Assembly (NCBI GenBank): GCA_030669585.1
Contig: DAOVDI010000001.1
Location: 994-64,993, forward strand
Origin: Acidobacteriota bacterium
GTDB taxonomy: Bacteria > Acidobacteriota > Aminicenantia > Aminicenantales > Aminicenantaceae
DNA: 64,000 nucleotides
Direction: 5' to 3'
The position numbers and the translations under genes are program-made. The notes under the pieces are model-generated. The model was given only the letters and a program-made list of their open reading frames with translations, had not been told where the DNA came from and did no database searches. Numbering within the stretch: the first letter of the stretch is position 1; each line of letters opens with the position of its first letter. Shown piece after piece: positions 8,805-56,972 of this stretch.

Positions 8805-10034
8805 GTGATAGAAATTTTTCGAATGACAACACACAAAAAATATATCATCCTGGCAGCAATGGTCATTCTCACCATTACGCAGGTTTTACCCTGCGAATAC
8901 AACATACGTGATTCCGGTTTTGTGGAGATAGCGCCACAACCTTATCTACTATATTTTTATGTGGACAGCGCCATCTCCGAAGAAAAGATTCGATTTTTCA
9001 ATAAAATTTCCCAAACCCTCTTTAGAGATACAAATATCACTCCTGAGACCATCCATATCAAAAAATCCAAAAAATCCACAGCTTTGGAGTATTTTCGTTT
9101 CTGGAACATCGATTCCCTGCCCGCCCTCATCCTTGTCTCTCCTGACAAACGCTCCATACTTCTCCCCATAGACCATACAGAAAAAAATTTTGGTCAAGCT
9201 CTCTGGGATACCCTGGACAAAACTGCGGTCTCTCCTGTTCGAGACAAGGTGCTGGAAAACATCGTTCGATCATACGCAGTTATTCTTCTTTTTGAAGGTA
9301 AAGACCCCGCGAATAACCAGGCTGCGCTTAATAAGATCGATACAGCCAAAAAAAACATTTCCCGCCTGATGACCCAGCTTCCCAAACGGATCGAAAAACC
9401 ACCTCATCTTATTGTTCTCTCCCGAAACAAAATACGCCGGGAGAAGATCCTTCTCTGGAGCCTGGACATTGAAATAAACGGACCGGATGAATCTAAAATC
9501 GTGATCCTTTTCGGACGGGGACGGATTTTTTTAACACCGCTCAAAAGCAATCAGGTCTCATCCTCCCAACTGACCAACATCCTGTCCATTCTGGGCCTCT
9601 CCTGCGACTGTGGACTGGACAAGCGAGGCATGATGGGCCCCAGGCTTCCCCTGCGATGGGATGCTGCGATCCAGGCGCAGATCGTGAAGTATCTGGGTTT
9701 TGATGCTGAAAATCCCATGATCAGACAGGAAATCGCCGGCATCCTTTCCACGGAAAATTTCCGTTCGTCAGTACTCTCTATGGAAGAGAATAAAATTAAA
9801 GGCTCTTTGATGGAGCTTAATCTTTACAGCGAATCCATACAGTCATTCGGCCGGCGCTTCAGTTCAAAACGGATCTCACCGGCTCAAAATCAGGGCCTGG
9901 GCACATCCCGCTCCAACAGGACAGGGCCGGTATCAAATTCCATCCGGCTGGTTGCAGCCGGGGCAGTTATCCTTGCAATCATACTTGTCATAAGTCTAAC
10001 CATTTTTATAAAGAGACGGAGAAAAAAATTATGA
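8805..10034 (+). CDS. Hypothetical membrane-anchored protein with an N-terminal signal-anchor and a C-terminal TM helix followed by RRRKKL
   Basis: Hydrophobic N- and C-termini. Its stop overlaps the start of the downstream giant gene (ATGA), indicating an operon. Confidence 0.5.
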   Translation: MIEIFRMTTHKKYIILAAMVILTITQVLPCEYNIRDSGFVEIAPQPYLLYFYVDSAISEEKIRFFNKISQTLFRDTNITPETIHIKKSKKSTALEYFRFWNIDSLPALILVSPDKRSILLPIDHTEKNFGQALWDTLDKTAVSPVRDKVLENIVRSYAVILLFEGKDPANNQAALNKIDTAKKNISRLMTQLPKRIEKPPHLIVLSRNKIRREKILLWSLDIEINGPDESKIVILFGRGRIFLTPLKSNQVSSSQLTNILSILGLSCDCGLDKRGMMGPRLPLRWDAAIQAQIVKYLGFDAENPMIRQEIAGILSTENFRSSVLSMEENKIKGSLMELNLYSESIQSFGRRFSSKRISPAQNQGLGTSRSNRTGPVSNSIRLVAAGAVILAIILVISLTIFIKRRRKKL

Positions 10035-13000
10035 ACACAACATATATGTTTAAAAACAAATTAAAAACCACCCTTTTTTTAACTCTTGCTGCCATGATCT
10101 TTGTTCAATGCGGCAGTATAGATCAACCCGGAGATGCTTGGAAAACATACCGGTATGATAATTCGCGAAGCGGATATTCCCCTGCTTCCATCACTCTTCC
10201 CATGGAGCTGAAGTGGCATTTTAGATCTTTACAACCGCCCCGCCCCGCCTGGCCGGAACCCAGTGAAGAGATGAAACGAATTCAGATGGACAATGCTCTC
10301 CACGCAGTCACCGCTTACGGATCAGTCTTTTTTGCTTCTTCTGCAGACCACAGCGTTTATGCCCTGGATATTCAAACCGGGAAGGAACAATGGCACTTCT
10401 TTGCCCAGGGACCTGTGCGTTATGCTCCTTCAGTCTGTAACAAACGCCTCTATTTCGGATCTGATGACGGGCTTGTATACTGCCTGAATGCAAAAAACGG
10501 TAAAATGATCTGGAACTACCGGGCAGGTCCGACCAGTGAAAAAGTGCTGGGCAACGGGCATATGATCTCTTTATGGCCGGTCAGGAGCAGCGTGCTCATA
10601 GATAAAGGCGTTGTTTATTTTGGAGCAGGCGTTTTTCCTTACGAAGGGCTCTATATCTGTGCTCTGGACGCAAAGGACGGACATGTGGTCTGGAAAAACG
10701 ACACCATCGGTGACCGTGAACACGAGCTTATATTTGGAGGCATCTCCCCTCAGAGTTATCTCTTGGCATCTGATAATATTCTCTACATCCCATCCAGCCG
10801 CGCCATGCCTGCGGCCTTTGATAAAAAAACCGGTGAATTTCTTTACTACCTGGAACCAGGAGGAAAGATCGGCGGCGTATGGGCTCTCCTTGATCAGGAT
10901 CACCTGATCGCTGGTATCGATCTCTCAGGAACACCGGCCAAAGCAGTCTATGACGAAAAAACAGGAGAAAAACAGGAAGATATGCATGCCTGGTTTCCCG
11001 GAATCGACCTTGTTGTATCCCGGGACATATCATTCACTCTTACACAGGACGGCGTATATGCCCTGGACCGAAAACAGTACCTTAACCTGCAAAAAAACCA
11101 GCTTAAAGACCTCCGTGAAAAAAAAGAAAACCTCAGGTCCAGACTCCGGGATATCTATTCCCGCATTTCTGATGCGAATGATCAGGCTCTTGATAAGCTG
11201 AATCAAGAAAGGGAAAGCATTACACATTTGATCGATGAACTTACAGAAGTTGAAGGAAAGCTTAAACCGGAGATGTTTAAGTGGGCTTTCAGCCGGAAAA
11301 ATCTCTATACTATGATCCGCGCTGGAGATTTTCTCTTCGCCGGAGGAGACGGGTATATAATCGGCCTGAACATCCAGACCGGAGAAAAACTGTGGGAACT
11401 GGATGTTTCCGGAAAAGTGATGGGCCTGACAGCAGTTAAAAACCATCTTATCGCCAGCACTGACATGGGCCATGTCTACTGCTTTGCCCCGAATGGAAGC
11501 TCAACAAAATCCGCAGAAATTAAACAGAAAAACAACAATCCGCCATTCATAAATAATAAAAAGTCTAACCTTTACCGGTCTGGAGTGAAAAATCTTCTCT
11601 CGCAGACGGGGATCCAAAAGGGATATGCTCTGGTTCTGTCCGACGCTCCCGAACAGTTGGCTTATGAGCTGGCAAAACAGACAGAGCTTTATGTTGTCGC
11701 TCTTGTTAAAAATAAAAAACAGGCAAATAAGGCAAGAAAAAAGCTGTTTTCAAGCGGGCTTTACGGCACCAAAATAGTTTTTGAGCCCTGGGATCTGGAA
11801 TATCTTCCCGACTATTTTGCCAATCTGATCATTTTAGATAAAAGAACATGGAAAACAAATATTTTCTCATCAAAAGAGATATTCAGGGTTCTCAAGCCCT
11901 ATGGAGGGACAGCTGTTTTTGGGTCTTTTGGGAAAGATAATCAAAATGAATTCAAAAGCAATACAAAAGAAATTAAGGAATGGCTTAAAGAGGTCGTTCC
12001 TGAATCCCGTATCAACATGCATAAAGATACTCCATGGCTCTTTTTTACACGTGAAGAACTTGAAGGGGCAGGCGCCTGGACTGAAGAATACGGAAATCCC
12101 GGCAACACCGCCTGTTCCGGAGATGAACTGGTCAAAGGGCCTCTCGCAGTCCTCTGGTTCGGGGAGCCCGGATCTCAACAGATGCTGGACAGGCATGCCA
12201 AGGCTCAGAGTCCGCTTTCCAAAGACGGACGTTTGTTCATTCAAGGAGAGGAAGTTATTCTGGCCTATGATGCCTATAACGGCACCAAACTCTGGGAAAA
12301 AGAACTTCCGGGCGCTGTCCGTCCTCGAGCTGATGTGGACGGAGGAAATTTTTCCCTAAACAGCACTGGACTCTTTGTGGGAGCAAAGGACCACTGTTAT
12401 AGACTGGACCCGGGCAGCGGAAAAACCCAAAAAATATTCGCTCTCCCTGATACTTCTGCATCCGGAGCTTTCCGCTGGGCCCACGTATCCTCAACTGAAA
12501 CCACCCTGTTCGGCAGCAGAGGCATGGCTCTTCCTAGAGAATATTTTTTCATAAGAAACACTCTGACAGAAAAAACAAAATGGAAAGACCTTGAGGATAT
12601 CCCCGAAGAATACCAGGATCTGTATATCTCGATGAAAACACGATATCCTGACCCGGAAGATGGCCTTCTGGAGGATTTTAAACGATCAGGGATACTCTGG
12701 CGTGTCATGACAGAATTCCCGGACTGGGAAAATTACAATATTCAACAAGGAGCTTTGACTGACCGCATCATGACCAGTGACATGGTCTTTGCCCTGGAAC
12801 CGCAAACAGGAAAAATAAAGTGGATACACAGAGGGCACAGGATAGCCCATATAACGATCAGCAAGGAATCAGGAAAAATATTCTTCGCGGAAAATCAAGT
12901 CACATCGGCTGATAAACAAAAGGCCCGGAAAGAGATGCTGCGGCTGATTCAGGACGAAATTTATATTCAGGGAGACGAACGTCATGTCAAAGAGAGTGAA

Positions 13001-14590
13001 AGGGATTTCCGGACCGTTTTTGCCCTGGACGAGGAAACAGGCAAACTCAAATGGAAAAAAACTCTGGATTTTACAGGCTGCGGCGGAGATGCGCTTGCTT
13101 CGGCAGCACATAACGGTGTTCTCGTCTTTTTTTCAAACGTGGGCAGTCACGATGCGTGGCGTCACCAAACCGGTACACTACGATGGAAACGGATGATCGC
13201 CCTTTCTGTAGAAAACGGCACAGTGCTCTGGTCCAGAGCCAATAATTACAGGACGCGGCCTGTGATCGTGGAAAACCGCATTTACATCGAGCCGCGTGTC
13301 TGCGATCTGCATACAGGAAAGATTCTTAATCGCAGCCATCCTGTGAGCGGTCTGTCCGTTCCCTTCGAGTATCTGCGGCCAGGACATACATGTGCCATCA
13401 CATCAGCCTCGTCTTCGATGCTTTTTTACCGGTCGTCCTCCACAGCCTTTATGGATTTTGAAAAGGATGACGGAGTAAGTCTGTTCGGCGCTATCCGTCC
13501 GGGGTGCTGGATCAGCCTAATCCCGGCAAGCGGAGTGCTGCTTTATCCGGAAGCCAGCGCAGGGTGCACCTGTTCTTATCCTATTCGTGGATCTCTTGTC
13601 TTAAAACACAAAAAAAACCGCTGGTCTAAAGGCAAGATGTTCATCACACACGGTCCTATGACCCCGGTCAAGCATTTTTCAATAAACCTCGGCTCTGTAT
13701 CGGATATGAAGGACAGCGAGGGGAATATCTGGTTCGCCTATCCCAATCCCGACACGAATTATACAAGCAATCACTATCCCGACTACGGTGTCAAATTTGA
13801 CCTGAATGATCAGGTTCCCACAGGGATGGGATACTTTTCCGGAGACTTCCGGAACATATCCATATCCGGGACCGACAAGCCATGGCTTTTCACATCCGGG
13901 GCCGCAGGGATCACTTCATTCGAGATCCCCCTGATCGATGATATCTGGGGCGAGGCACCCGGAACATATACAGTGCGACTGGGATTTAAAGTTCCATCCA
14001 ACGACCGGAGAGGGCAACGTGTTTTTGATATCAAAATACAGGGGGAAACAGCCGCCGGTAATTTTGATATCCGCAGAGAGACAAAAGCCGGGTCAGATGT
14101 CGTGATCCGGGATTATACGGGAATGAGCGTATCCAATACACTGGCTATTGAGCTGGTACCCAGGATGAAAAATCCTGGATTGGACAAAACCCCGGTGATC
14201 AATTTTATCCAGGTGCTTCGGGAAGGCGATCCAGGTATTATGGCGGAAGTTGAAAATGAAGCGCTTAAGAATTATCACTCCATCTTGAAAAGATCTACAC
14301 AAAAAGATCTCAAAATAAAAGCTCTGGAGGGAATTGCATTTATCGCTGACCCAGTTTCTCTTCCCCTGATCAAAAATTATTGTGAAAATATCGACCCGGT
14401 CATCCGGGATTACAGAGACCAGGATAAAGACCTCAAGAAGAGCGCAACCCTGGCATTCCTTGCTATCGCCGATAATATCGCAGAGTATGACAAAGACAAA
14501 TCATTTAGAATGCTGAACAGAGCCATGGCTTTTACTCCCCAGGAAGACCTGGAGACACTACAGGAGATCACGTCCAGATTAAGGAAATAA
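10031..14590 (+). CDS. Giant secreted protein of 1519 aa with PQQ-like beta-propeller repeats, a central coiled coil and a C-terminal HEAT-like region
   Basis: Signal peptide, repeated PQQ-type motifs (YAPSVCNKRLYFGSDDGLVYCLNAKNGKMIWNY and similar), and a coiled-coil segment around residues 340-400. Confidence 0.6.
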   Translation: MNTTYMFKNKLKTTLFLTLAAMIFVQCGSIDQPGDAWKTYRYDNSRSGYSPASITLPMELKWHFRSLQPPRPAWPEPSEEMKRIQMDNALHAVTAYGSVFFASSADHSVYALDIQTGKEQWHFFAQGPVRYAPSVCNKRLYFGSDDGLVYCLNAKNGKMIWNYRAGPTSEKVLGNGHMISLWPVRSSVLIDKGVVYFGAGVFPYEGLYICALDAKDGHVVWKNDTIGDREHELIFGGISPQSYLLASDNILYIPSSRAMPAAFDKKTGEFLYYLEPGGKIGGVWALLDQDHLIAGIDLSGTPAKAVYDEKTGEKQEDMHAWFPGIDLVVSRDISFTLTQDGVYALDRKQYLNLQKNQLKDLREKKENLRSRLRDIYSRISDANDQALDKLNQERESITHLIDELTEVEGKLKPEMFKWAFSRKNLYTMIRAGDFLFAGGDGYIIGLNIQTGEKLWELDVSGKVMGLTAVKNHLIASTDMGHVYCFAPNGSSTKSAEIKQKNNNPPFINNKKSNLYRSGVKNLLSQTGIQKGYALVLSDAPEQLAYELAKQTELYVVALVKNKKQANKARKKLFSSGLYGTKIVFEPWDLEYLPDYFANLIILDKRTWKTNIFSSKEIFRVLKPYGGTAVFGSFGKDNQNEFKSNTKEIKEWLKEVVPESRINMHKDTPWLFFTREELEGAGAWTEEYGNPGNTACSGDELVKGPLAVLWFGEPGSQQMLDRHAKAQSPLSKDGRLFIQGEEVILAYDAYNGTKLWEKELPGAVRPRADVDGGNFSLNSTGLFVGAKDHCYRLDPGSGKTQKIFALPDTSASGAFRWAHVSSTETTLFGSRGMALPREYFFIRNTLTEKTKWKDLEDIPEEYQDLYISMKTRYPDPEDGLLEDFKRSGILWRVMTEFPDWENYNIQQGALTDRIMTSDMVFALEPQTGKIKWIHRGHRIAHITISKESGKIFFAENQVTSADKQKARKEMLRLIQDEIYIQGDERHVKESERDFRTVFALDEETGKLKWKKTLDFTGCGGDALASAAHNGVLVFFSNVGSHDAWRHQTGTLRWKRMIALSVENGTVLWSRANNYRTRPVIVENRIYIEPRVCDLHTGKILNRSHPVSGLSVPFEYLRPGHTCAITSASSSMLFYRSSSTAFMDFEKDDGVSLFGAIRPGCWISLIPASGVLLYPEASAGCTCSYPIRGSLVLKHKKNRWSKGKMFITHGPMTPVKHFSINLGSVSDMKDSEGNIWFAYPNPDTNYTSNHYPDYGVKFDLNDQVPTGMGYFSGDFRNISISGTDKPWLFTSGAAGITSFEIPLIDDIWGEAPGTYTVRLGFKVPSNDRRGQRVFDIKIQGETAAGNFDIRRETKAGSDVVIRDYTGMSVSNTLAIELVPRMKNPGLDKTPVINFIQVLREGDPGIMAEVENEALKNYHSILKRSTQKDLKIKALEGIAFIADPVSLPLIKNYCENIDPVIRDYRDQDKDLKKSATLAFLAIADNIAEYDKDKSFRMLNRAMAFTPQEDLETLQEITSRLRK

Positions 14591-20920: not shown

Positions 20921-22585
20921 TTATTTCACTCCTTTCAAAAAACGCATTTCAATATAATTATCGTTAAATCCCAATTTTTTATAGAGTTTTATAGAAGGAT
21001 TTGTCTTTTCCAAGTGTAATTTAACATCTCCATCAGCACAGTCAATCGCTTCTCGAATCAACCGACTGCCCAATCCTTTCCCCCGATAATTTTGATGAAC
21101 ACAAACATAAACAATTAAATTTTCAGGTATAATACCGACTTTATTGAGTTGTATACAAACAATAACGCCAAGAAGCTTTTTATCAATTGTGGCTAATAAA
21201 ATAAAACCTTTACCGCCTGGATGAGCAGACAAAGCATATTCAACAGCAGTAGAAATAACATCTTTTGGGTCATCGAATGGCATAAGATGCGTTTGTAAAA
21301 AATTTACAATATCATAAAGGTTCATCCATTCAGGCAGTTCATTTTCTGTTTGAAAATATCGAATGTGAATATCATCTGTTTTTTCTTGTTCAATAACAAT
21401 TTCTGATGTAACATCCTGTTCGTCAATTTGATAATTTCTGGCGATGCTATTACCAAAACGCATCATTAATTCTGCAGCAATGGTATCTGATTTTTCAGCC
21501 AGTTCATTTATGTCGATTTCTTGTTTTCCTTGTCGACCAATTATTAGTACTTCATCCCCGATTTTAGTATCTTTGATTTCAGTGATATCCACTGTTGATG
21601 AATTCATCGATATGGCGCCAATAAATGGTGCTTTTTTTTCATGAACAATAACATAGCCACCGTTCAATAGTTTACGATCTAAACCGTGATTATATCCTAT
21701 GGGAATTGTGCCAATTATTAAATCTCGTTCTGTTTGTTCTTTGGAACGGTAACCAATTTTGCTTCCTTTTGGCAATTGTCGAATTTGTACAATTTCTGTT
21801 TTTAAGCTCATGACAGGTTTTAATTGATTTAGTTTTGTTTTTATTTTGTATTGCTCTGGAGGAAGGACACCATATAATAATATCCCCAGGCGGACACCGG
21901 CGGCAACAGTTTCAGGATGAGCTAAAAAAGTAGAGCTGTTTGCAAAATGCAAATAATAAGGGGCAACATCTTCTAATTTTAATTTTTCATAAATTTTTTT
22001 TAAATGTTTAAATGACTCAAGAGCGCTGGTGGAATCACGGGATTGTCCAAACAATCCATCTAATTCAATATGTGTTTTAGATATTGCTTCTTTTGCAATT
22101 TTATGTACTTTGGATGGCGCGACTCCCAAACGATTTAATCCAATATTTACATTTAAATGAATTCGGCAAATTTTTCCCATTAATTGAGCAGCATCTTCTA
22201 ACGGCTGTAAAATGGATTCATTAATGACAGAAACACTTAAACTATGCCGTACAGATAATTCTGCCATCCAGGTAGGGATTGGATTCATTAATAATATTTC
22301 ACCTGTAATGCCTTCGTTACGGAGCCGAATTCCTTCCTGTGGAGATTCAACTGCATAATGCATACAACCTGATTCGGAAAGGACTTTCCCAATTTCTTTT
22401 AGACCATGCCCGTAGGCATCGGATTTTATGACAGCATAAAATAGCACTCCTGGAGGAAGTTGTGATTTTAAATATCGATAATTAAATTTTAAAGCTTCAA
22501 GATCAATGTTTAGTTTATTCCAGGGGTCTTCGTACTCTCTTTGTACCAATGGTGGTGAAAGGCTATCTTTATCTTTATTATTCAC
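20921..22585 (-). CDS. Alanine racemase-like PLP enzyme fused to a C-terminal GNAT N-acetyltransferase
   Basis: PLP-lysine motif AVIKSDAYGHG at the N-terminus. GNAT motif (HQNYRGKGLGSRLI) in the C-terminal 150 aa. Confidence 0.7.
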   Translation of the reverse strand: MNNKDKDSLSPPLVQREYEDPWNKLNIDLEALKFNYRYLKSQLPPGVLFYAVIKSDAYGHGLKEIGKVLSESGCMHYAVESPQEGIRLRNEGITGEILLMNPIPTWMAELSVRHSLSVSVINESILQPLEDAAQLMGKICRIHLNVNIGLNRLGVAPSKVHKIAKEAISKTHIELDGLFGQSRDSTSALESFKHLKKIYEKLKLEDVAPYYLHFANSSTFLAHPETVAAGVRLGILLYGVLPPEQYKIKTKLNQLKPVMSLKTEIVQIRQLPKGSKIGYRSKEQTERDLIIGTIPIGYNHGLDRKLLNGGYVIVHEKKAPFIGAISMNSSTVDITEIKDTKIGDEVLIIGRQGKQEIDINELAEKSDTIAAELMMRFGNSIARNYQIDEQDVTSEIVIEQEKTDDIHIRYFQTENELPEWMNLYDIVNFLQTHLMPFDDPKDVISTAVEYALSAHPGGKGFILLATIDKKLLGVIVCIQLNKVGIIPENLIVYVCVHQNYRGKGLGSRLIREAIDCADGDVKLHLEKTNPSIKLYKKLGFNDNYIEMRFLKGVK

Positions 22586-48392: not shown

Positions 48393-49685
48393 TTAACGAA
48401 ATCGTCTCCAGCCGCCTCTGATCTCACCAAATCTCGGATTGACGACATTGCTGTAGATCGACCCGAATGTAAAACTCAATCCGACCTCCAGGGAGTACTG
48501 GTGCTCGGTCGCCAGTTCCTTGCGGCGGAGCAGGATCTCTTCCAGAGTTGCTTCTCCAAACGGTAGTGAAAGCTGATCGTGAATGACTTCATAACGTCCG
48601 TCAATTTCCAGAGAAAGCCCTTTGAAGATCCGGAGTGATAATTCGAGGTCAAATTCAAGCCTGTTTTTTGAAAAGTCATGAAAATAGTTTGAACCCTCCA
48701 GGGAAGCTTCCACATTTCCCCACGGCTCTCTCATCTCGAAAGTAATATCAAGAGATTGCCCGAACAGATGCTCGGACTTTTTTTCATAAATAGTTACTTC
48801 ACGATAATTGGCATAGTTGTGGGCCAGCTTATAGAGAAAACGCAGCTGCCTTCGCGTCGACTGCGAATAAGGGAAAAAATTATATTCAATAGCCAGAGCC
48901 GGATTGATGCTGAAGTGAATATTCCGGTATGTCGAAGATGATAAATTCAGAAAACCGCCAACAGACCAGTGGTCATTGATGCTTTTGGCATAAAGCCCGC
49001 TGAAACTTTCCATCTCTGACGTACTGGTGACTAATTCATCTTCATAATCATACTTCCTCTGGTCAAAATTGGCGGAAATACCCATGCGCAGCTTGGACGC
49101 CGGCGTGACTCTATTAACGGAAATATTTCCATAAATGGATTTGGCGCTTTTCTGCGCCTCGCCATTGAGACGTCCGTTCATACTGGCGCTGAACACCCAG
49201 AAGTTCCATTTATCAACAACCGCAGTCGGCTGTACTTTCGAGCGAAAGGATACTCCCAGAAGACTGCATATAGGAGTCCTGGCCGCATAGGGAACAAGCC
49301 CCAGCTTTAAATATCTGACATATTCTCTTCGTATCTCGTCACTTGTTTCTGTTTTATTGGACACATAAACCAGCGTGGTGCTGAGATCGGAAAACCCATT
49401 TTGACCGATAAAAGCGAGGGTATATTCCCGTCCGCCGGCTCCAGTGGTCTGCTGGGTAATCAGAACATGAACATCTGCTTCCTTGCGATCCCTCACATAA
49501 TTCACAAATGGGATCTCAGTTTTTATATAATTCATATCGCACCGCTGGCAGTCGATAAAGACCTTAGGCGCCTGTTTCTTTAACTCATTGACATATTCCT
49601 GCACTGTTCGAACAGCAGAACCAGATACACTTAAAAATCCCAAAAGTAAAAACATCAAAAAAACCATTATCTTCCGGTTCTTCAT
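48393..49685 (-). CDS. Hypothetical secreted or outer-membrane beta-barrel-like protein. The start is revised to the ATG at 49685, which has an AAGGAG RBS.
   Basis: Signal peptide MKNRKIMVFLMFLLLGFLSVSGSA. Beta-rich composition and a C-terminal aromatic residue. Confidence 0.45.
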   Translation of the reverse strand: MKNRKIMVFLMFLLLGFLSVSGSAVRTVQEYVNELKKQAPKVFIDCQRCDMNYIKTEIPFVNYVRDRKEADVHVLITQQTTGAGGREYTLAFIGQNGFSDLSTTLVYVSNKTETSDEIRREYVRYLKLGLVPYAARTPICSLLGVSFRSKVQPTAVVDKWNFWVFSASMNGRLNGEAQKSAKSIYGNISVNRVTPASKLRMGISANFDQRKYDYEDELVTSTSEMESFSGLYAKSINDHWSVGGFLNLSSSTYRNIHFSINPALAIEYNFFPYSQSTRRQLRFLYKLAHNYANYREVTIYEKKSEHLFGQSLDITFEMREPWGNVEASLEGSNYFHDFSKNRLEFDLELSLRIFKGLSLEIDGRYEVIHDQLSLPFGEATLEEILLRRKELATEHQYSLEVGLSFTFGSIYSNVVNPRFGEIRGGWRRFR

Positions 49686-49794
49686 ATAACTCTCCTTTAT
49701 AAACTTCAACGCCATTACTCCTTTTAGACGTAATAAAAATTAGAATCTTCCAGTTGTGAGAAAGACCCGTTCTGATTATAATGAGTAAAATCAA

Positions 49795-51378
49795 ATGAAA
49801 TTAGAAAACGAGGAATTCTGCCTGGAAGAAAGTACCATTCCTCCCGGCTTCAGGCTGGATACTCCTCAAGATCAGAACTTTTATCTTGTTGAAGGCCGGA
49901 TCCTCCCCTGGAAAGGCAGAGTTATTGATGTATATTCCCCTATCCATATAAAAAAATCCGGAAAGATCACAGAAAAGAAGATCGGGTCCTATCCATCTTT
50001 TACCAGGGCGCAAGTCTTGTCTGCGCTAAAGGCCGCTCTGTCCGCATATGACAACGGCCAGGGCAGATGGCCCGCAGAACCTTTGACCAGCAGGGCTAAA
50101 GCCATTAACAAATTTCTTGATCAATTAGCCGGGAAAAAAAAGAAGATCATAAAAAAATTGATGTGGGAGATCGCCAAACCCTATGTTGAGCTGGAAAATG
50201 AGTTCGAACGGACGATGGAATTTGCACAAACAGTCATCGAAACAGCCAAAAAGAATGATGTTGAAGTGAGGAAAAGAGAGAAAGGCATCATTGGATTCGT
50301 CCGGCATGAAGCATTCGGCGTTGCATTATGCATGGGCCCTTACAACTACCCGTTTTTTGAGACGCTGTCCCTGGTGATCCCGGCGCTCCTCATGGGAAAC
50401 ACCGTAATCGTAAAGCCTCCTAAATTCGGTCTGTTATTTTTCCAGGACCTTCTCAAGGATTTTCGAGACTGTTTTCCCCCAGGAACTGTAAATGTCATCT
50501 TCGGCGACAGCGAGGTTCTCATTCCACCTCTAATGGAAAGTGGGGACATCAATATATTCGCCTTTATCGGGACCAGCCAGACTGCCAATGAGCTGATCTC
50601 GCTTCATCCAAAAAAAAACCGGCTGCAGACACTTCTGGGGCTCGAAGCAAAAAATGCTGCTGTTGTTATGGCTGATGCGGATTGTAAGGCCTCAGTCAAA
50701 GAAGTGCTCCTGGGAGCGCTTGCCTTTAATGGGCAGCGTTGTGCAGCTCTAAAAATCGTCTTTGTAAACAAAGAAATAGTTGAATGTTTTCTTAAGATCA
50801 TGAAAACAGAGATAGCCGGAATCAAAGTGGGAATGCCCTGGCTTAAAGGAGTCAGGATCACGCCATTAGTCGATGCCCAGAGGATTCCGTATTTGAAAGA
50901 TCTGGTTGACGATGCCCGGAGTCATGGAGCCGAAATCCTGAATCCAAATGGCGGACGATCTTTTCTATCTCTCTTTTATCCGACCATAATTTTTCCCGTG
51001 GATTCCAAAATGCGGATATATCATGAAGAACAATTTGGCCCGATCATTCCCATCATCCCATTTGCCAGTATCGAAACTCCTGTCAAGTATCTCGCTAACT
51101 CATCTTTTGGACAGCAGGTCAGCGTATTCGGCCAGGATATCCCGGCTCTCGCAGACTTCCGGGACCGGGTCAAGTGCCAGGTGGCCCGGGTGAATATCAA
51201 TATCAAATGTCAAAGAGGGCCGGATTCCCTTCCCTTTACGGGAAGAAAAGACTCGGCAAGAGGAGATTTTTCTCCGGACCAGATATGGAAATCCTTTTCC
51301 GTTAGAACAACTGTAGCCCTCAGAGAAGGAGAGCTGGCTGAAAAGCTTATTCCAAGATTATCAGGGAAAACCGGTTAA
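49795..51378 (+). CDS. Aldehyde dehydrogenase family protein, GapN-like (non-phosphorylating)
   Basis: Catalytic Cys context FNGQRCAA and EEQFGP motif. 527 aa. Confidence 0.6.
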   Translation: MKLENEEFCLEESTIPPGFRLDTPQDQNFYLVEGRILPWKGRVIDVYSPIHIKKSGKITEKKIGSYPSFTRAQVLSALKAALSAYDNGQGRWPAEPLTSRAKAINKFLDQLAGKKKKIIKKLMWEIAKPYVELENEFERTMEFAQTVIETAKKNDVEVRKREKGIIGFVRHEAFGVALCMGPYNYPFFETLSLVIPALLMGNTVIVKPPKFGLLFFQDLLKDFRDCFPPGTVNVIFGDSEVLIPPLMESGDINIFAFIGTSQTANELISLHPKKNRLQTLLGLEAKNAAVVMADADCKASVKEVLLGALAFNGQRCAALKIVFVNKEIVECFLKIMKTEIAGIKVGMPWLKGVRITPLVDAQRIPYLKDLVDDARSHGAEILNPNGGRSFLSLFYPTIIFPVDSKMRIYHEEQFGPIIPIIPFASIETPVKYLANSSFGQQVSVFGQDIPALADFRDRVKCQVARVNINIKCQRGPDSLPFTGRKDSARGDFSPDQIWKSFSVRTTVALREGELAEKLIPRLSGKTG

Positions 51379-51458
51379 ACAAAATTATTTGTAAATATTA
51401 ACGGATAAATTCATATATAATATTAAATTAGGATTATTTAAGAGTTGACTGCGGGACA

Positions 51459-54400
51459 ATGACCTCAAAAAATATTAACACACAGGATTGGAGTTCATCC
51501 GCCCTGGAAACCAATTTAAAAAAAACGTCTGCTTATGTTAAGATCCCGGGCAAACATAAACCGCTTCTTAAAATTGTGGAAGGCTCCTTTGGGCGGCACA
51601 AACGGACTCTGGATCTCTTAACAGAACTGCACCATCCCTATGTTAACTGGGAGTATGTCATAGAGGAACTGAAAAGACTCTCTCTCTCTGATTTCTTTTT
51701 TCACAATTCCAGCACTCGGGGCGATAGGGCTATCAGCATAATTATTGATATATACATAGATCTTATCAGCAGGAAAAAGACCGATACTCTAAAGAAAAAG
51801 GCTATCAGATATCTGTTCGAATATCTCCATAAGATCCTGTCTGAAAGCGGTAAAAATCTTTCAAGAAACGCTCCTCTTGTCTGCCGTACCATTCCTTTTC
51901 TTAGCCACACATCCAGGAAGTCTCCTCATCTTTTCAGAAAAAAATCCAAACATATCAAGGATTTTCTTGACAGCCTGAACAAGCTTGACGCGGATATTCC
52001 ATGGAAAGACATGAAAGAACTGCTTCATCAAGTCTTCAAAGAGACATACATATTTTGGCTGGATCAGCCTGATCCTAAATGTTGGATGGATAATTTTCTT
52101 GAAGACAGCAAGGCCCTTGCTGAATTTAAGACTTTGATCTCACCCATCAGTCATGACAATATTCGAGGTTTTGCAGATGAGCTTGAGCTCACACATCGAT
52201 CCGTCAAGGACATGACAGCCTCATCCTTTTCACCCTACCTGCGCCTGCCGGATCATCATCAAATACTGAATGGATATTTGATTACTGCAGATGAGATGGA
52301 AAAATCAGAGATATTAAAAGGCCGTCAGCATTTTACACGGCTCCATTTTTTACTTAAGATCATTTCCTGTCCGGATCTTGCAGATATACACAAGAGAGCC
52401 CTAATCGAGACCAACCGGTCTCTGCATAAAGTTTTTGCTGAAAAAAACCACCGGGAACTGAACGGATTCATAAAAAATATGTTCCTCCTGTTAAAAAAAA
52501 GCGATGTCCGTTTTAAGTACCCGGATACACTTCTCAACTGTATTCTTACAGTGGCCAAACAGGTCTTTAAACTGGGTAATCATAAACTGGCAGATAACTT
52601 TCTCAAGGAAATTATTCAATTCGGTTTTCAGAATCCCAATATCCTGGGTGCCACTCAGGAATGGGAAGTTAAAGCAAATCCTGTCCATATAAAAAATATC
52701 CGAATATGGATGGAAATCATCGCTATGAATCCCCGCTGGTCCAAGAAACTTCTTTCAGCCCTGATCATCAATCTTCATCTGGGAGGAATTTTTGTCCGGG
52801 ACACAGACCTGCTTCAGAAAGATATCTCCGCCCTCTTGAATTCAGAGATCACACCCGCATACAATCTTGTTCTACAGCTTGCCAGGCTTTTCCCGATCTA
52901 TTACAACGAGATCGGAGCAGAAGGAGAGCTTCGGGAAATATCCACAGAAATGGATGAAGTTTCTTCAAGAAACGACAAGCTTATCCACTTTCTGAGGAAA
53001 CAGTCTCATGTGGAAAGCAACAGCTCCATGGTTTCCTTTGTGGAAAACATATTCCGTTTCTGGAGTACAGGGGAAAAAAAGCTTATAAAAAGTTATGTTC
53101 CCCCGGAGGTCTATGAACAGATAACAAATTCAGGCGAATATTTCGATGCAATGCACAGGATTTTTCAAAAGATCTTCCTGAAAACAGATGGAGAGTTCAA
53201 AGAAATCTTGAAATGGGATAAACCAAAAATCCAAAAAATCCTGCAGATATTCAGCAATGTGCCCAATAGAGATAAGGAAAGAGCTATTCTCATTATACGC
53301 TTCTATCAGCTTATATATAAAAAGTACAAGATCAATCACACATTTCTCATCAAGGATCTGGAATCATGTTCCTTCCTGGATCAAGCTAAGATACGATCCC
53401 TGAAACGGTATTTGCAGCGCAAGGAGTTTTACAAAGCGCTGGACATCATCCTGGACTTCCTGGCAGCGCTGAATAAGCGCATTCTTTCACCCGAAAAAAC
53501 ACCGGCCACTGAGAACATCTACCATAAAAGGCATATCGCAGCAGGTATTCCTTCCATGTACGGGACTTATAACGAGGCTAAATTCGAAGCCCTTGGGCTG
53601 ACATTCAGACTGCAAAGTCTGGGAAATGTCCTGTTTGAACAAGCGATCAGTCAGCTGAATTATCAGTTTATAACAAAAAGCATGCTGCGTAAGAGTAATA
53701 CACATCTCTGGCTCTTCATAAAAGCGCTACGGATCGAAGGAGTTTCGACTGAAGGACTGGAGTTCAAGATGAAGTATTATGATAATGCACTCCAGGTCAA
53801 TCTCTTCACTATCGATCAGTACATCGACATCTTCCGCTTTTTATCCAAGGGGATACAGGATATCATCAGGGATTATTACATCGACGCCCACCAGGCGAAT
53901 CTCGCAGTCATCATTCCCCAGTATCTGGAAAAAGAGCCCAGTATCCTGCTGAGGGATAACGCTGAAACACCGGAGGAAGTTTTATACCGAATCTCAGAAA
54001 ACCTCATCCGTTCGATGATCTCATCAGCATTCGGACTGCAGACTCTTGACAATTTCATCAGCAATATCATCAAGACTTTGAGCATTGAAAACGAAAAATT
54101 CAAAGACCACAAACACATGCTCGACATCCTCATGACCTACAACCCGGAGATCACGGTCGTGCCTATCTATAAAAAGATGACGACACTAAACAATCAGATC
54201 CATCTCGGGAACAAGGGCTACTTCCTGAAAAAAATGGCCTGTTCCGATTTTCCAATTCCTCCGGGCTTTATCATCACTACCGAGGTTTTCCGGTGCCTCG
54301 ATGCCGTCCTGGGCCACGAGTACATCACGAAAGACCTGAACGGACGGATCGATGCCGAGATAAAACACCTCACCAGAAAGACTGGAAAGGAACTGGGCAA

Positions 54401-55685
54401 TCCCAAGAATCCTTTACTGCTATCTGTGAGAAGCGGAGCAGCGATCTCTTTGCCCGGCATGATGAATTCCTTCCTGAACGTTGGCATCAACGAAAAGATC
54501 GCAGAAGGACTGAGCCAAAAAAAAGGATTCAGTTGGGCGGCGTGGGACAGTTACAGAAGATTTCTTCAGGTATGGGGCATGTTCGAGGGGCTAAACCGGG
54601 ATTCCTTCGACGCGATCATCCTTCATTACAAGGAAAAATATAATATCTCAAAAAAATTAGAGTTCTCACCTTCTCAGATGAAACAGATCGCACTGGCATA
54701 CAAACAGGAACTCCTTTATCACAACATCGATGTCATAGAAGACCCCCGCGAGCAATTGCGCATTGCCACGCTCAAGGTCTTCGAATCCTGGCACTCCCAG
54801 CATGCCATGATCTACAGGCATGAAATGAATATCTCTGATGAGTGGGGCACTGCGGTTATTGTCCAGGCAATGATATATGGAAATCTTAACACAAAGTCAG
54901 GGTCGGGTGTTGTCTTCACCCGCAACCCAAAAGGACTGTCAAGTTCCGTGCATCTCATCGGGGATTATATTTACGGTGTACAGGGAGATGATATTGTTTC
55001 CGGTCTTGTCGAAACCAACCCGGTCTCCATCCGCCAGTGTAAAATTGAGAAACGGAGATCCGAGACCTCCCTGGAAAAAAGATTCCCACTTGTCTACTCC
55101 AAACTGAAATACTTCGCAAAAGTTCTCATCTACGACGTTGGATTGGATCACCAGGAGATTGAATTCACTTTTGAGAATGAAACACCGGACGGTCTTTATA
55201 TTCTGCAGACACGTGATATGCTGCCCATCGAATCTGTTAAACTGAGACCTTTTGTTAAGTCAACGCAGTTGAAAAAGTCTCTTATAGGAACAGGGATCGG
55301 CATATCCGGAGGCGCTCTATCCGGCCGGGTTGTTTTTTCAAAAAACGAGATCAATTATCACAGAAAACAGGATCCCAAGACCCCGCTCATTCTGATCAGG
55401 CCGGACACTGTACCGGAAGATATAAGTTTGATCCGTCAGGCCGACGGGCTCCTCACAGCCAGAGGGGGAAGCACATCCCACGCCGCAGTCACAATTCCTC
55501 AGTTGAAAAAAACCGGTGTTGTCGGTTTAAAAGACATGAGAGTTCACGAGAAAGAAAAATACATCGAGATTAATAGACATAAGATCCGGAGCGGAGACTA
55601 TGTCAGTATAGACGGCTGGAGCGGATCTGTCTATCTCGGGAAGCATGCCATCGAACCCGAAGCCACATTCAGGATAAAGATCTGA
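51459..55685 (+). CDS. 1408-aa PEP-utilising-family phosphotransferase-like protein. It has a novel roughly 840-aa N-terminal region, a PPDK-type ATP-grasp nucleotide-binding domain and a phospho-histidine swivel domain, with no PEP/pyruvate-binding TIM barrel.
   Basis: The residue 850-1250 region matches the PPDK/PpsA N-domain (LLSVRSGAAISLPGMMNSFLNVG..., FTRNPKGLSS...). The swivel motif TARGGSTSHAAV is near the C-terminus. The protein ends shortly after. Confidence 0.65.
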   Translation: MTSKNINTQDWSSSALETNLKKTSAYVKIPGKHKPLLKIVEGSFGRHKRTLDLLTELHHPYVNWEYVIEELKRLSLSDFFFHNSSTRGDRAISIIIDIYIDLISRKKTDTLKKKAIRYLFEYLHKILSESGKNLSRNAPLVCRTIPFLSHTSRKSPHLFRKKSKHIKDFLDSLNKLDADIPWKDMKELLHQVFKETYIFWLDQPDPKCWMDNFLEDSKALAEFKTLISPISHDNIRGFADELELTHRSVKDMTASSFSPYLRLPDHHQILNGYLITADEMEKSEILKGRQHFTRLHFLLKIISCPDLADIHKRALIETNRSLHKVFAEKNHRELNGFIKNMFLLLKKSDVRFKYPDTLLNCILTVAKQVFKLGNHKLADNFLKEIIQFGFQNPNILGATQEWEVKANPVHIKNIRIWMEIIAMNPRWSKKLLSALIINLHLGGIFVRDTDLLQKDISALLNSEITPAYNLVLQLARLFPIYYNEIGAEGELREISTEMDEVSSRNDKLIHFLRKQSHVESNSSMVSFVENIFRFWSTGEKKLIKSYVPPEVYEQITNSGEYFDAMHRIFQKIFLKTDGEFKEILKWDKPKIQKILQIFSNVPNRDKERAILIIRFYQLIYKKYKINHTFLIKDLESCSFLDQAKIRSLKRYLQRKEFYKALDIILDFLAALNKRILSPEKTPATENIYHKRHIAAGIPSMYGTYNEAKFEALGLTFRLQSLGNVLFEQAISQLNYQFITKSMLRKSNTHLWLFIKALRIEGVSTEGLEFKMKYYDNALQVNLFTIDQYIDIFRFLSKGIQDIIRDYYIDAHQANLAVIIPQYLEKEPSILLRDNAETPEEVLYRISENLIRSMISSAFGLQTLDNFISNIIKTLSIENEKFKDHKHMLDILMTYNPEITVVPIYKKMTTLNNQIHLGNKGYFLKKMACSDFPIPPGFIITTEVFRCLDAVLGHEYITKDLNGRIDAEIKHLTRKTGKELGNPKNPLLLSVRSGAAISLPGMMNSFLNVGINEKIAEGLSQKKGFSWAAWDSYRRFLQVWGMFEGLNRDSFDAIILHYKEKYNISKKLEFSPSQMKQIALAYKQELLYHNIDVIEDPREQLRIATLKVFESWHSQHAMIYRHEMNISDEWGTAVIVQAMIYGNLNTKSGSGVVFTRNPKGLSSSVHLIGDYIYGVQGDDIVSGLVETNPVSIRQCKIEKRRSETSLEKRFPLVYSKLKYFAKVLIYDVGLDHQEIEFTFENETPDGLYILQTRDMLPIESVKLRPFVKSTQLKKSLIGTGIGISGGALSGRVVFSKNEINYHRKQDPKTPLILIRPDTVPEDISLIRQADGLLTARGGSTSHAAVTIPQLKKTGVVGLKDMRVHEKEKYIEINRHKIRSGDYVSIDGWSGSVYLGKHAIEPEATFRIKI

Positions 55686-55694
55686 CCGGCCAGT

Positions 55695-56972
55695 TCATTG
55701 AAGTTTCTTGTGGACATATACGGCCAGGTCGCCCATTCTGTTCGTATAGCTTCCGTACTCATTGTCATACCAGCCGAATATTTTTGCATGAACGACTGGA
55801 ACCTGTATCTTGTCAATGGAAAAAGACTGCGCCATTTCAGACGATATCTGCGGTATCTGCGAGAGGTCAATATCAATGAACGCTGTCCGTGTATGATTGA
55901 ATGAACCTTCGATGACAACAGCGGCGTTTATCTTGGAAACATCGCAGGAAACATTCTGCTCCTCTGAATAAACAAGAAGCTGTTCAGAGTCATTCTCAGC
56001 CGTTTCTTTATAGATCTTATTGATCGCCTTTGCGTCGATCACACAGACCTTCCCTTTATTCGAGAGCTGACACTGGAAGGTCATGTTGAGTATGATCAAG
56101 GATTCTGTCTTTATAGGAACCCTGACCGAGTCGGCCATGAATCCGATTCTTTTCACTTCGGGAACAACAAGGGCCAGCGCCTCTGCTGCGTTTGTGGATG
56201 TCAGAATAATGTTATCCAGAATACTCCTTGATTTCCTGAGATCTTTTGCCCCTGCTTTTGGAACATTGTCTAAAACGCTTTGAGAGTTCGTCACAGCATG
56301 AATGGTCGACATTGATGCCGTTAGGATGGAACTTACATCCATGTGATCCAGAAGGGGCTTGATCATGTGGGCCAGTCCTGTTGTGGTGCATGACGCTGCC
56401 GAGATCAGCGTGTGTTTTCCGCCTTCATAGGACTGGTGATTTATGCCGTAAATCAGTGTTGCCGCATCATCCGGCATGGAAAGACCACTGTTTTTGATCT
56501 TAAATGCAGATGAATTGATCACGACTTTTGCCCCGCCTAAAAAGTGACCCCGGATTGAACCTCTTCCCTCATCGGCCGGCAGAGTGGGATCCCTGAACTT
56601 TCCGGTGCACTCGGCAACCACTTCAACACCGTAGTCCCCCCAGGGGATGTCCCTTGGATTTCTTGCTTCTCTCAGGATCGTCACCGGGATTCCGTCAATA
56701 AGGAGCTGCCCCTTTTTTTCGTCCAGGATCTTGATGATCGGTTTAGCATTGATCCCGAATAGAAAAGTGTGTATCAAGCCATATGTTGAATCCTTCTCCA
56801 GAGTCTGGACCACGGCATTCAAATTTGTTCCGATCTCCCGCCCCTGATTCACCACAATTTCTTTGAAATATTTTCTTCCGATATGATGCCATAAAGTGAG
56901 TTTGCCGATTCTCCCAAGACTGTTGATCCCTAAAACAGGCTTTTTCCCGGCTAAAATATCAACTGCCCCCAT
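55695..56972 (-). CDS. gap: Glyceraldehyde-3-phosphate dehydrogenase, unusually long form with internal insertions
   Basis: Active-site ASCTTTGLAH and C-terminal WYDNEYGSYTNRMGDL. About 90 aa longer than the usual GAPDH. Confidence 0.7.
   Translation of the reverse strand: MGAVDILAGKKPVLGINSLGRIGKLTLWHHIGRKYFKEIVVNQGREIGTNLNAVVQTLEKDSTYGLIHTFLFGINAKPIIKILDEKKGQLLIDGIPVTILREARNPRDIPWGDYGVEVVAECTGKFRDPTLPADEGRGSIRGHFLGGAKVVINSSAFKIKNSGLSMPDDAATLIYGINHQSYEGGKHTLISAASCTTTGLAHMIKPLLDHMDVSSILTASMSTIHAVTNSQSVLDNVPKAGAKDLRKSRSILDNIILTSTNAAEALALVVPEVKRIGFMADSVRVPIKTESLIILNMTFQCQLSNKGKVCVIDAKAINKIYKETAENDSEQLLVYSEEQNVSCDVSKINAAVVIEGSFNHTRTAFIDIDLSQIPQISSEMAQSFSIDKIQVPVVHAKIFGWYDNEYGSYTNRMGDLAVYVHKKLQ

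Follow-up and report, generated by a model that had tools for sequence, protein, structure and literature searches.

A barrel-less PPDK-like dikinase with a large helical domain and its GAPDH-paralog neighbor in Aminicenantes and syntrophic bacteria

We describe a pair of neighboring genes in the genome of an Acidobacteriota bacterium of the family Aminicenantaceae and discuss what the pair may do. The DNA analyzed, referred to as the window, is a stretch of 64,000 nucleotides (GenBank assembly GCA_030669585.1, contig DAOVDI010000001.1, positions 994 to 64,993 of the forward strand); coordinates are those of the window unless another locus is named. The first gene, BIG (51459..55685 on the plus strand, stop codon included), starts with ATG and encodes a protein of 1408 aa that resembles pyruvate, phosphate dikinase (PPDK) and has no barrel domain. 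The second, GAPL (55695..56972 on the minus strand), encodes a 425-aa divergent paralog of type-I glyceraldehyde-3-phosphate dehydrogenase (GAPDH). A gene for a GapN-like aldehyde dehydrogenase (ALDH) lies directly upstream of BIG. Together, BIG and GAPL suggest that sugar metabolism in energy-starved anaerobes includes, at the level of the triose phosphates, a step of phosphoryl transfer or of control that has not been described. In the literature searched, no account was found of the family, of a phosphoglycerate dikinase, or of the pair that BIG forms with GAPL.

The dikinase half of BIG

The C-terminal part of BIG is recognizably that of a PPDK. Pfam places PPDK_N (PF01326) at residues 958-1197 (E = 1e-28) and the PEP-utilizers mobile domain (PF00391) at residues 1309-1389 (E = 1e-13); the PEP-utilizers_C barrel (PF02896) has no match anywhere along the protein. 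In a phmmer search of the PDB, residues 915-1395 correspond to residues 17-509 of the PPDKs of Clostridium symbiosum and plants (E = 1.6e-72), with ~40% identity to PPDK over the dikinase half in the residue-level alignment. The C-terminus of BIG falls at the equivalent of PPDK position ~518, just past the swivel domain. These results bear out the preliminary description of the gene, which was made from the nucleotide sequence and saw an ATP-grasp domain and a histidine swivel domain with no TIM barrel.

The PPDK-type ATP-grasp domain, which binds the nucleotide and inorganic phosphate (Pi), occupies residues ~912-1253 (54192..55217, plus strand), and the PPDK equivalog model TIGR01828 matches residues 914-1253. 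In C. symbiosum numbering, BIG keeps K22, R92, G101, M103, E323, Q335, R337, T453, and H455; the same alignment has Glu in the ATP-grasp domain at the position of D321. The phospho-histidine swivel domain spans residues ~1274-1395 (55278..55643, plus strand). Its motif TARGGSTSHAAV (residues 1333-1344) contains the phospho-acceptor His1341, the equivalent of PPDK H455, within a T-S-H motif (codon 55479-55481). The protein stops 13 residues after the domain, at the point where the second linker of PPDK starts. By this conservation, BIG retains what PPDK needs for its first two partial reactions, those of ATP and Pi.

Family models agree on the lineage of this half and withhold its usual name. 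TIGR01828 gives BIG 363.8 bits, under its cut-off of 843.45, and the NCBIfam models for phosphoenolpyruvate (PEP) synthase match in the His-domain region only; the ATP-grasp domain is therefore of the PPDK lineage and not of the PpsA type. For the rifampin phosphotransferase model NF041857, whose cut-off is 999, the score is 20.3 bits. PADLOC gave no match that would indicate a role in anti-phage defense.

The N-terminal helical domain and the extent of the family

Ahead of the dikinase half, BIG carries ~905 residues that are all-helical in an AlphaFold2 (AF2) model apart from one beta hairpin. This region has no match in Pfam, NCBIfam, or PADLOC; a profile search against PDB sequences found no relative (best E = 0.11), and a Foldseek search against the PDB gave none at E <= 0.001, with template modeling (TM) scores of at most 0.2 and alpha-solenoids as the top matches listed. 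The ~900-aa helical domain is new at the levels of both family and fold. The preliminary description had likewise assigned the region to no known family, which stands, and had made it 840 aa long, which is too short. It had also raised two ways in which the unusual layout might be explained away. A known PEP-binding domain in permuted order was looked for and not found, the N-region being all-alpha according to AF2 and Foldseek, and the fusion of two open reading frames (ORFs) as an artefact is ruled out by the same layout in hundreds of genomes.

The helical region comprises two modules. The first, N1 (residues 1-355; 51459..52523, plus strand), is helical and clade-specific, and is modeled with a predicted local distance difference test (pLDDT) score mostly between 85 and 95. 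The second, the N2 core (residues 356-905; 52524..54173, plus strand), is helical and conserved throughout the family. Alignments of members at 24-50% identity yield 14 invariant charged or polar residues in N2: D448, R492, D499, D506, R513, K514, and H517 in its first half, and K622, Y623, K690, H692, S699, R851, and D864 in its second. The invariant residues cluster in blocks with the sequences VRDTD, EIGAEGELR, RKQSHVES, ENIYHKRHIAAGIPSMYGTY, and YHKRHIAAGIPSMYG. Three of these motif blocks form the sole low-confidence loops within the folded AF2 model (residues 397-403, 482-486, and 687-702).

The last of these loops belongs to the hairpin, the only beta element of the N-domain (residues 684-705; 53508..53573, plus strand). 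The near-invariant sequence ENIYHKRHIAAGIPSMYGTY forms its tip, where His, Ser, Tyr, and Thr side chains are found; the tip has a pLDDT below 50 in both AF2 models and is modeled as flexible. When residues 209-1408 were remodeled with AF2, so that the dikinase half was included, the predicted TM score (pTM) was 0.58 and the invariant loops still had a pLDDT below 50. In these models, the hairpin is a candidate for an active-site lid or a phospho-acceptor loop. With 14 charged or polar positions unchanged even among members at 24% identity, the N-domain resembles an enzyme rather than a scaffold, and the invariant, charged, and flexible loops of N2 would fit a site for phosphoryl transfer or anion binding better than a passive support.

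The family is large and widespread. A first protein database search returned more than 120 full-length homologs (~1405 aa) at 53-81% identity, from Aminicenantes, Syntrophorhabdus, Syntrophus/Smithella, and other Thermodesulfobacteriota; most of them are labelled 'pyruvate, phosphate dikinase' or 'PEP/pyruvate-binding domain-containing protein'. An exhaustive HMMER search with the N-terminal 905 aa alone produced 560 cluster representatives, so that the family counts ~560 clusters at 50% identity. Nearly every full-length match in that search is 1350-1450 aa long, with the helical region at the N-terminus, and this shared ~1400-aa layout implies that the N-domain exists only fused to a dikinase half. 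A scan of one genome per species found a relative of BIG in at least 518 species genomes, a lower bound, including the cultured Syntrophorhabdus aromaticivorans UI and Smithella. Conservation across phyla is ~50% identity over 1400 aa.

Two groups depart from this layout at the N-terminal end. In the clade typified by P0264, alignment with BIG begins only at residues ~304-369, and the first ~400-450 aa are unrelated to N1. Members of this clade (L091:411-4853 and L094/L095:9001-13389) are 1450-1480 aa long and keep the N2 core and the dikinase half; the neighbors of one are lipopolysaccharide-core and sulfatase genes, and those of the other are two-component systems and a NiFe hydrogenase. A second group, the sub-clade of P0134, P0136, P0146, and P0177 (L090:1166-5788 and L092:8001-12368), has an extra N-terminal hemerythrin domain of ~140 aa. 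Placed ahead of the helical region, this domain is a possible sensor of O2, iron, or redox state.

A GAPDH paralog as a near-obligate neighbor

The pairing of BIG with GAPL holds across genomes. We compared the neighborhoods of BIG in 80 species loci, 66 of which are informative in that the whole gene is present and is followed by 1.4 kb or more of sequence downstream. A GAPL gene lies convergent with BIG at less than 1 kb in 58 of the 66 (88%), with a median gap of ~120 bp and with 62-75% identity to the GAPL of the window. Five more loci have it on the opposite strand within 6.4 kb, bringing the total to 63, and in the remaining 3 of the 66 it was not seen. The reverse comparison agrees: all 3 of the loci that were seeded with GAPL have BIG convergent alongside, though their flanking genes are unrelated. 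In the divergent members P0123 (39% identical) and P0128 (~35%) and in the hemerythrin-fused P0134 (~30%), GAPL lies 22-190 bp downstream on the same strand and encodes a protein of 420-424 aa with all the same insertions (described below). The adjacency thus persists through deep divergence and a change of orientation, and this is strong evidence that BIG and GAPL are functionally coupled.

The presence of GAPL follows that of N1. N1 is found in every clade with a neighboring GAPL and is exchanged for unrelated sequence in the clade without it; in both of the sampled members of the latter, GAPL is absent within 6-9 kb. One hemerythrin-fused member sits on a short contig on which no GAPL was seen. 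At another locus (L092:8001-20368), in a divergent genome, the hemerythrin-fused dikinase and GAPL are followed on the same strand by a complete V/A-type ATPase operon (subunits I, c, E, d, F, A, B), a single case of linkage that hints at a tie to energy conservation.

In the window, the stop codons of the two genes are 9 bp apart (55685-55695) in convergent orientation; in other genomes the gap ranges from ~4 to ~830 bp. Promoter and terminator scans at the 9-bp junction gave nothing above shuffled expectation, and the intergenic stretch holds no convincing hairpin. Given so short a gap without a terminator hairpin, the two transcripts must overlap at their 3' ends or each end within the coding sequence of the other gene.

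GAPL has the GAPDH fold, with the Pfam domains Gp_dh_N and Gp_dh_C, and shares with GapA and GapB the catalytic Cys and His. The equivalents of Cys149, His176, Thr179, and Arg231 are kept in the segments SAASCTTTG, STIHAVT, SVRVP, and WYDNEYG, and the catalytic Cys195 is encoded at 56388-56390. It differs from type-I GAPDH in its TIGR01534 score (277.3 bits, under the cut-off of 367.2), in nine insertions that add ~90 aa, among them 4 aa in the S-loop and 29 aa near the C-terminus, and in an altered phosphate site, where D181 is Ser or Thr and, in most sequences, R195 is Lys and G209 is Asn. The proteins form a tight family of their own, 56-96% identical across phyla; the GAPL of the window is 96% identical to a protein from an Aminicenantes metagenome-assembled genome. 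Since the catalytic residues and those of the site for the C3 phosphate are kept, GAPL should still act by thioester and acyl-phosphate chemistry on a triose phosphate, with this triose phosphate and its acyl phosphate as substrate and product. Asp32, the residue that specifies NAD, is missing from all GAPL sequences (VND is replaced by VN[QPILT]), and the enzyme therefore probably has relaxed cofactor use or employs NADP(H). The gluconeogenic, NADPH-using GapB of Bacillus subtilis is also without Asp32.

Unbiased clustering of the genes in the 80 loci found only three other recurrent metabolic neighbors: an ordinary gap (~12 loci), tpiA (14 loci), and pgk (10 loci). The ordinary gap is directly upstream of BIG in ~12 Syntrophales loci, and one locus (L025) has gap, pgk, and GAPL on one strand. 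The idea that BIG replaces a missing pgk was rejected, as pgk adjoins the module in ~10 loci. No gene encoding a barrel recurs across the 80 neighborhoods. The link to triose-phosphate metabolism that the preliminary description had drawn from the window is strengthened by the near-obligate GAPL and by the recurrent gap, pgk, and tpiA; its check of neighborhood conservation comes out in favor of the GAPDH paralog.

The ALDH gene (49795..51378, plus strand) encodes a 527-aa protein with the Pfam domain Aldedh. GapN accounts for every one of its 11 best PDB matches (179-198 bits; the next ALDH class scores 131 bits), and the protein has the Arg-Cys pair of GapN (FNGQRCAALK, Cys316). Among the NCBIfam GapN models, only the archaeal GAPN model matched, at 155 bits against a cut-off of 780. 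The label GapN-like, used in the preliminary description, appears reasonable on these comparisons, and both the ALDH and the long GAPDH on the opposite strand were found as it had reported them. As context, the two are of unequal weight: the GAPDH paralog is a near-obligate neighbor, and the ALDH is conserved only in Aminicenantes-type loci, 6 of the 80. It stands upstream of BIG in L002, L003, L008, L009, and L067, and overlaps the start of BIG in L002. The ALDH is a lineage-specific accessory of the BIG-GAPL module, and in the lineage of the window BIG is probably co-transcribed with it.

Several further genes were noted. Genes for TyrRS, Pta/AckA, SerC, and glycerate 2-kinase were considered as conserved partners and rejected, as they do not recur in the 80 loci; those for glycerate 2-kinase and SerC lie within 8 kb in the window. 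A 650-aa protein with an alanine racemase domain is a recurrent upstream neighbor of BIG in 12 Smithella-type loci and is also encoded at L085:13350-15272; in the window itself, a 554-aa protein (20921-22585, minus strand) joins an alanine racemase to a GNAT acetyltransferase domain at the C-terminus. Directly upstream of the ALDH-BIG pair, and divergent from it, is a 440-aa ORF with no Pfam or NCBIfam match (48393-49715, minus strand). Another ORF with no match in these databases (8805-10034, plus strand; 409 aa) overlaps at its end the start of a 1519-aa ORF (10031-14590, plus strand) whose product has PQQ/BamB-like beta-propeller repeats in its N-terminal part and a carbohydrate-binding malectin domain in its C-terminal part. 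A further aldehyde oxidizer in the window is a 580-aa protein of the aldehyde:ferredoxin oxidoreductase family, the tungsten/molybdopterin AOR (6920-8662, minus strand). A hybrid sensor kinase (4376-6328, plus strand) has its domains in an unusual order, with an N-terminal receiver followed by PAS, HisKA, and HATPase. Finally, a glutaminyl/glutamyl-tRNA synthetase gene (2543-4267, plus strand) contains a single in-frame TAG at 2888-2890 (ASDYY*QLYEF), which falls in the conserved catalytic domain and leaves the downstream frame unchanged; it could be a sequencing or assembly error, the mark of a pseudogene, or a case of recoding.

Possible roles at the triose-phosphate stage

BIG can be set beside several known systems. 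PPDK (EC 2.7.9.1; C. symbiosum structure 1KBL) is homologous in the ATP-grasp and phospho-His swivel domains, and the two would be expected to share the partial reactions E-His + ATP + Pi <-> E-His~P + AMP + PPi, where PPi is pyrophosphate. In contrast to PPDK, BIG has no TIM barrel; its 905-aa helical domain is at the opposite, N-terminal end, and its His domain is C-terminal and held by a single tether. Another dikinase that lacks the barrel, rifampin phosphotransferase (RPH), reportedly phosphorylates rifampin. RPH, HpeHI, and phenylphosphate synthase resemble BIG in combining an ATP-grasp domain and a C-terminal swivel His with a non-barrel, largely helical acceptor domain, an architecture by which the barrel appears exchangeable for other acceptor domains. 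RPH, HpeHI, and glucan water dikinase already exemplify the histidine-swivel dikinase principle and the exchange of acceptor domains; what is new here is the acceptor domain and the conserved partner enzyme. The likeness of BIG to RPH-type dikinases is a resemblance in working logic and not family membership: there is no sequence relation beyond the shared domains, the domain order is different, the ATP-grasp domain of BIG is of the PPDK lineage, and its N-domain is three to four times larger than their acceptor domain. Moreover, RPH and HpeHI belong to antibiotic and aromatic metabolism, whereas the context of BIG is central carbon metabolism.

The preliminary description held the rifampin-phosphotransferase types to be the only characterized enzymes with such a layout. 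This is too narrow, as VadK (Rv1127c) of Mycobacterium tuberculosis is also a barrel-less derivative of PPDK; the passages of PMC13400623 consulted report it as a regulatory histidine kinase that autophosphorylates, binds enzymes of the methylcitrate cycle whose genes are close by, and tunes the flux through them. BIG, too, is a PPDK derivative without a pyruvate domain that is encoded beside a metabolic partner. As VadK appears in those passages, it differs from BIG in being ~490 aa long without an added domain, whereas BIG adds ~905 aa with catalytic-looking invariant residues of their own, and in its partners, which are methylcitrate-cycle enzymes where that of BIG is a GAPDH paralog.

We tentatively propose, as a possibility that falls short of the probable, that BIG is a dikinase that works with GAPL and interconverts 3-phosphoglycerate (3-PG) and 1,3-bisphosphoglycerate (1,3-BPG), with ATP and Pi on one side and AMP and PPi on the other. 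The more far-reaching claim, that BIG is a 3-phosphoglycerate,phosphate dikinase with a new catalytic fold that forms with GAPL a PPi/AMP-linked bypass of phosphoglycerate kinase (PGK) in syntrophs and Aminicenantes, is doubtful. As proposed, BIG would be a histidine-swivel dikinase with three sites. By homology to PPDK, the ATP-grasp domain would take up ATP and Pi, and His1341, on the singly tethered C-terminal swivel domain, would accept the beta-phosphate and release AMP and PPi. The swivel domain would then hand the phosphoryl group on to the helical N2 core, where a new active site, made up of the invariant Asp/Arg/Lys/His cluster and the flexible hairpin 684-705, would stand in place of the PEP/pyruvate barrel of PPDK. 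The third substrate would be the carboxylate of 3-PG, giving 3-PG + ATP + Pi <-> 1,3-BPG + AMP + PPi, and GAPL would interconvert 1,3-BPG and glyceraldehyde-3-phosphate (G3P), probably accepting NADP(H). BIG and GAPL would thus offer a PPi/AMP-linked route alongside PGK and GAPDH, as PPDK stands to pyruvate kinase. Such a route might drive gluconeogenesis at a low ATP/ADP ratio; alternatively, in the glycolytic direction, it might regain ATP from AMP and PPi in anaerobes in which CoA ligases make both plentiful.

Several considerations lead to 3-PG as the acceptor. The pairing of BIG and GAPL mirrors PGK/GAPDH, aspartokinase/aspartate-semialdehyde dehydrogenase (AK/ASADH), ProB/ProA, and ArgB/ArgC, in all of which the gene for a phosphotransferase is tightly linked to that for a phosphorylating aldehyde dehydrogenase; to our knowledge, the two enzymes of such a pair always share an acyl phosphate. 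The metabolic genes that recur nearby are gap, pgk, and tpiA. There are also precedents for exchange of phosphate between a phospho-His and an acyl phosphate: succinyl-CoA synthetase passes phosphate from an acyl phosphate to a phospho-His and on to the nucleotide in an ATP-grasp site, and the His of bisphosphoglycerate mutase is phosphorylated by 1,3-BPG. The energetics agree as well, since textbook standard free energies (-49 kJ/mol for 1,3-BPG and -46 kJ/mol for ATP to AMP and PPi) put the reaction near equilibrium, at a calculated value of about -4 kJ/mol toward ATP; for PGK the figure is 19 kJ/mol toward ATP. BIG and PGK share neither sequence nor fold, and BIG would go from ATP to AMP via phospho-His, where PGK goes directly in line from ATP to ADP.

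A number of observations weigh against this proposal. For the N-domain, no relative was found by structure or by sequence that would point to a site for 3-PG, and the folds closest to it are alpha-solenoids, usually binders of protein. AlphaFold left the predicted His domain undocked from the invariant loops, in a model that is itself uninformative (pTM 0.58; loops with pLDDT below 50). The pgk gene coexists with the module, sometimes adjoining it, which makes the route redundant unless it is energetically distinct. One clade without a nearby GAPL keeps all the invariant N2 residues, and the core chemistry is therefore not tied to GAPL. The fusion of a hemerythrin sensor in some members is more typical of signaling proteins. 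Lastly, the probable co-transcription of BIG with the GapN-like ALDH would set up a futile cycle if BIG and GAPL were gluconeogenic without added control.

Some of these points lend weight to the main rival view, in which BIG is a regulatory phosphotransfer protein directed at other proteins, which autophosphorylates on His1341 and tunes the flux between G3P and 1,3-BPG via GAPL. The N-domain would bind GAPL, with N1 as the docking module, and BIG would phosphorylate GAPL, relay phosphate to its own H692/S699, or bind in a manner that depends on its phospho-state; it would be a much larger analogue of VadK, or comparable to the transfer from enzyme I to HPr in the phosphotransferase system. 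We consider this unlikely. VadK, in the passages of PMC13400623 cited above, sets the example of a PPDK derivative without a pyruvate domain that autophosphorylates and binds enzymes encoded nearby, although those passages do not demonstrate phosphotransfer to a partner, and a 900-aa domain goes far beyond what VadK needs. The sole fold likeness of the N-domain to protein-binding alpha-solenoid scaffolds, the hemerythrin fusions, the correlation of N1 with adjacency to GAPL, the nine family-specific surface insertions of GAPL, which could dock, and the His, Ser, Tyr, and Thr of the invariant flexible loop are all consistent with regulation. Yet for a regulator the sequence would be unusually well conserved, at ~50% identity across phyla over 1400 aa, and the dense Asp/Arg/Lys/His cluster persists in the clade without GAPL, which suggests catalysis on a common small ligand.

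That ligand might be other than 3-PG. If BIG were a small-molecule dikinase for another metabolite of the pathway, with GAPL acting upstream or downstream, candidate substrates would be glycerate, glyceraldehyde, dihydroxyacetone, a C4 phospho-acid such as 4-phosphoerythronate, or a carrier cofactor held in the N-domain, as ADP is in DhaL. The same catalytic features would serve, barrel-less relatives act on small molecules as diverse as rifampin and, in the case of the two-component dikinase HpeHI, hydroxyphenylethanones (PMC12167813), and the altered phosphate-site residues and S-loop insertion of GAPL leave room for a substrate different from G3P; in addition, glycerate 2-kinase and SerC are encoded within 8 kb in the window. 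These two are not conserved neighbors, however, whereas gap, pgk, and tpiA are precisely the ones that recur; the residues gripping the C3 phosphate of G3P are retained in GAPL, and kinases that turn ATP into ADP suffice for such substrates, so the need for a dikinase is not evident. We regard this reading as quite improbable. The database label 'pyruvate, phosphate dikinase' and the ~40% identity of the C-terminal half to PPDK would suit an ordinary PPDK or PEP synthase, with its barrel supplied in trans or concealed within the N-terminal region, or else an artefact of assembly or fusion. The chance of this is close to nil: PEP-utilizers_C is absent, the N-region is all-alpha bar one hairpin, no barrel gene recurs in the 80 neighborhoods, TIGR01828 scores 364 against 843 bits, and at least 518 genomes share one identical architecture, findings that exclude the reading.

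These results bear on lower glycolysis and gluconeogenesis, a stage of metabolism usually taken as fully catalogued. Annotations and metabolic reconstructions that count BIG as a PPDK are wrong, and the 900-aa helical domain represents a new family whose candidate catalytic residues are sharply defined. The hosts (Syntrophales, Syntrophorhabdia, Smithella, and Aminicenantes) are environmentally dominant anaerobes that drive methanogenic digesters and sediments. A PPi/AMP-linked route would fit such organisms of low energy charge because AMP and PPi are abundant from CoA ligases, and, if BIG and GAPL do form an alternative to PGK, the bookkeeping of ATP would change in metabolic models of organisms living at the thermodynamic limit. 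Should BIG be a VadK-like regulator instead, it would represent a new and widespread mode of GAPDH control. If it is a 3-PG dikinase, the lower Embden-Meyerhof pathway would gain a new reaction, and energy-limited anaerobes a new way of recycling AMP and PPi or of driving gluconeogenesis.

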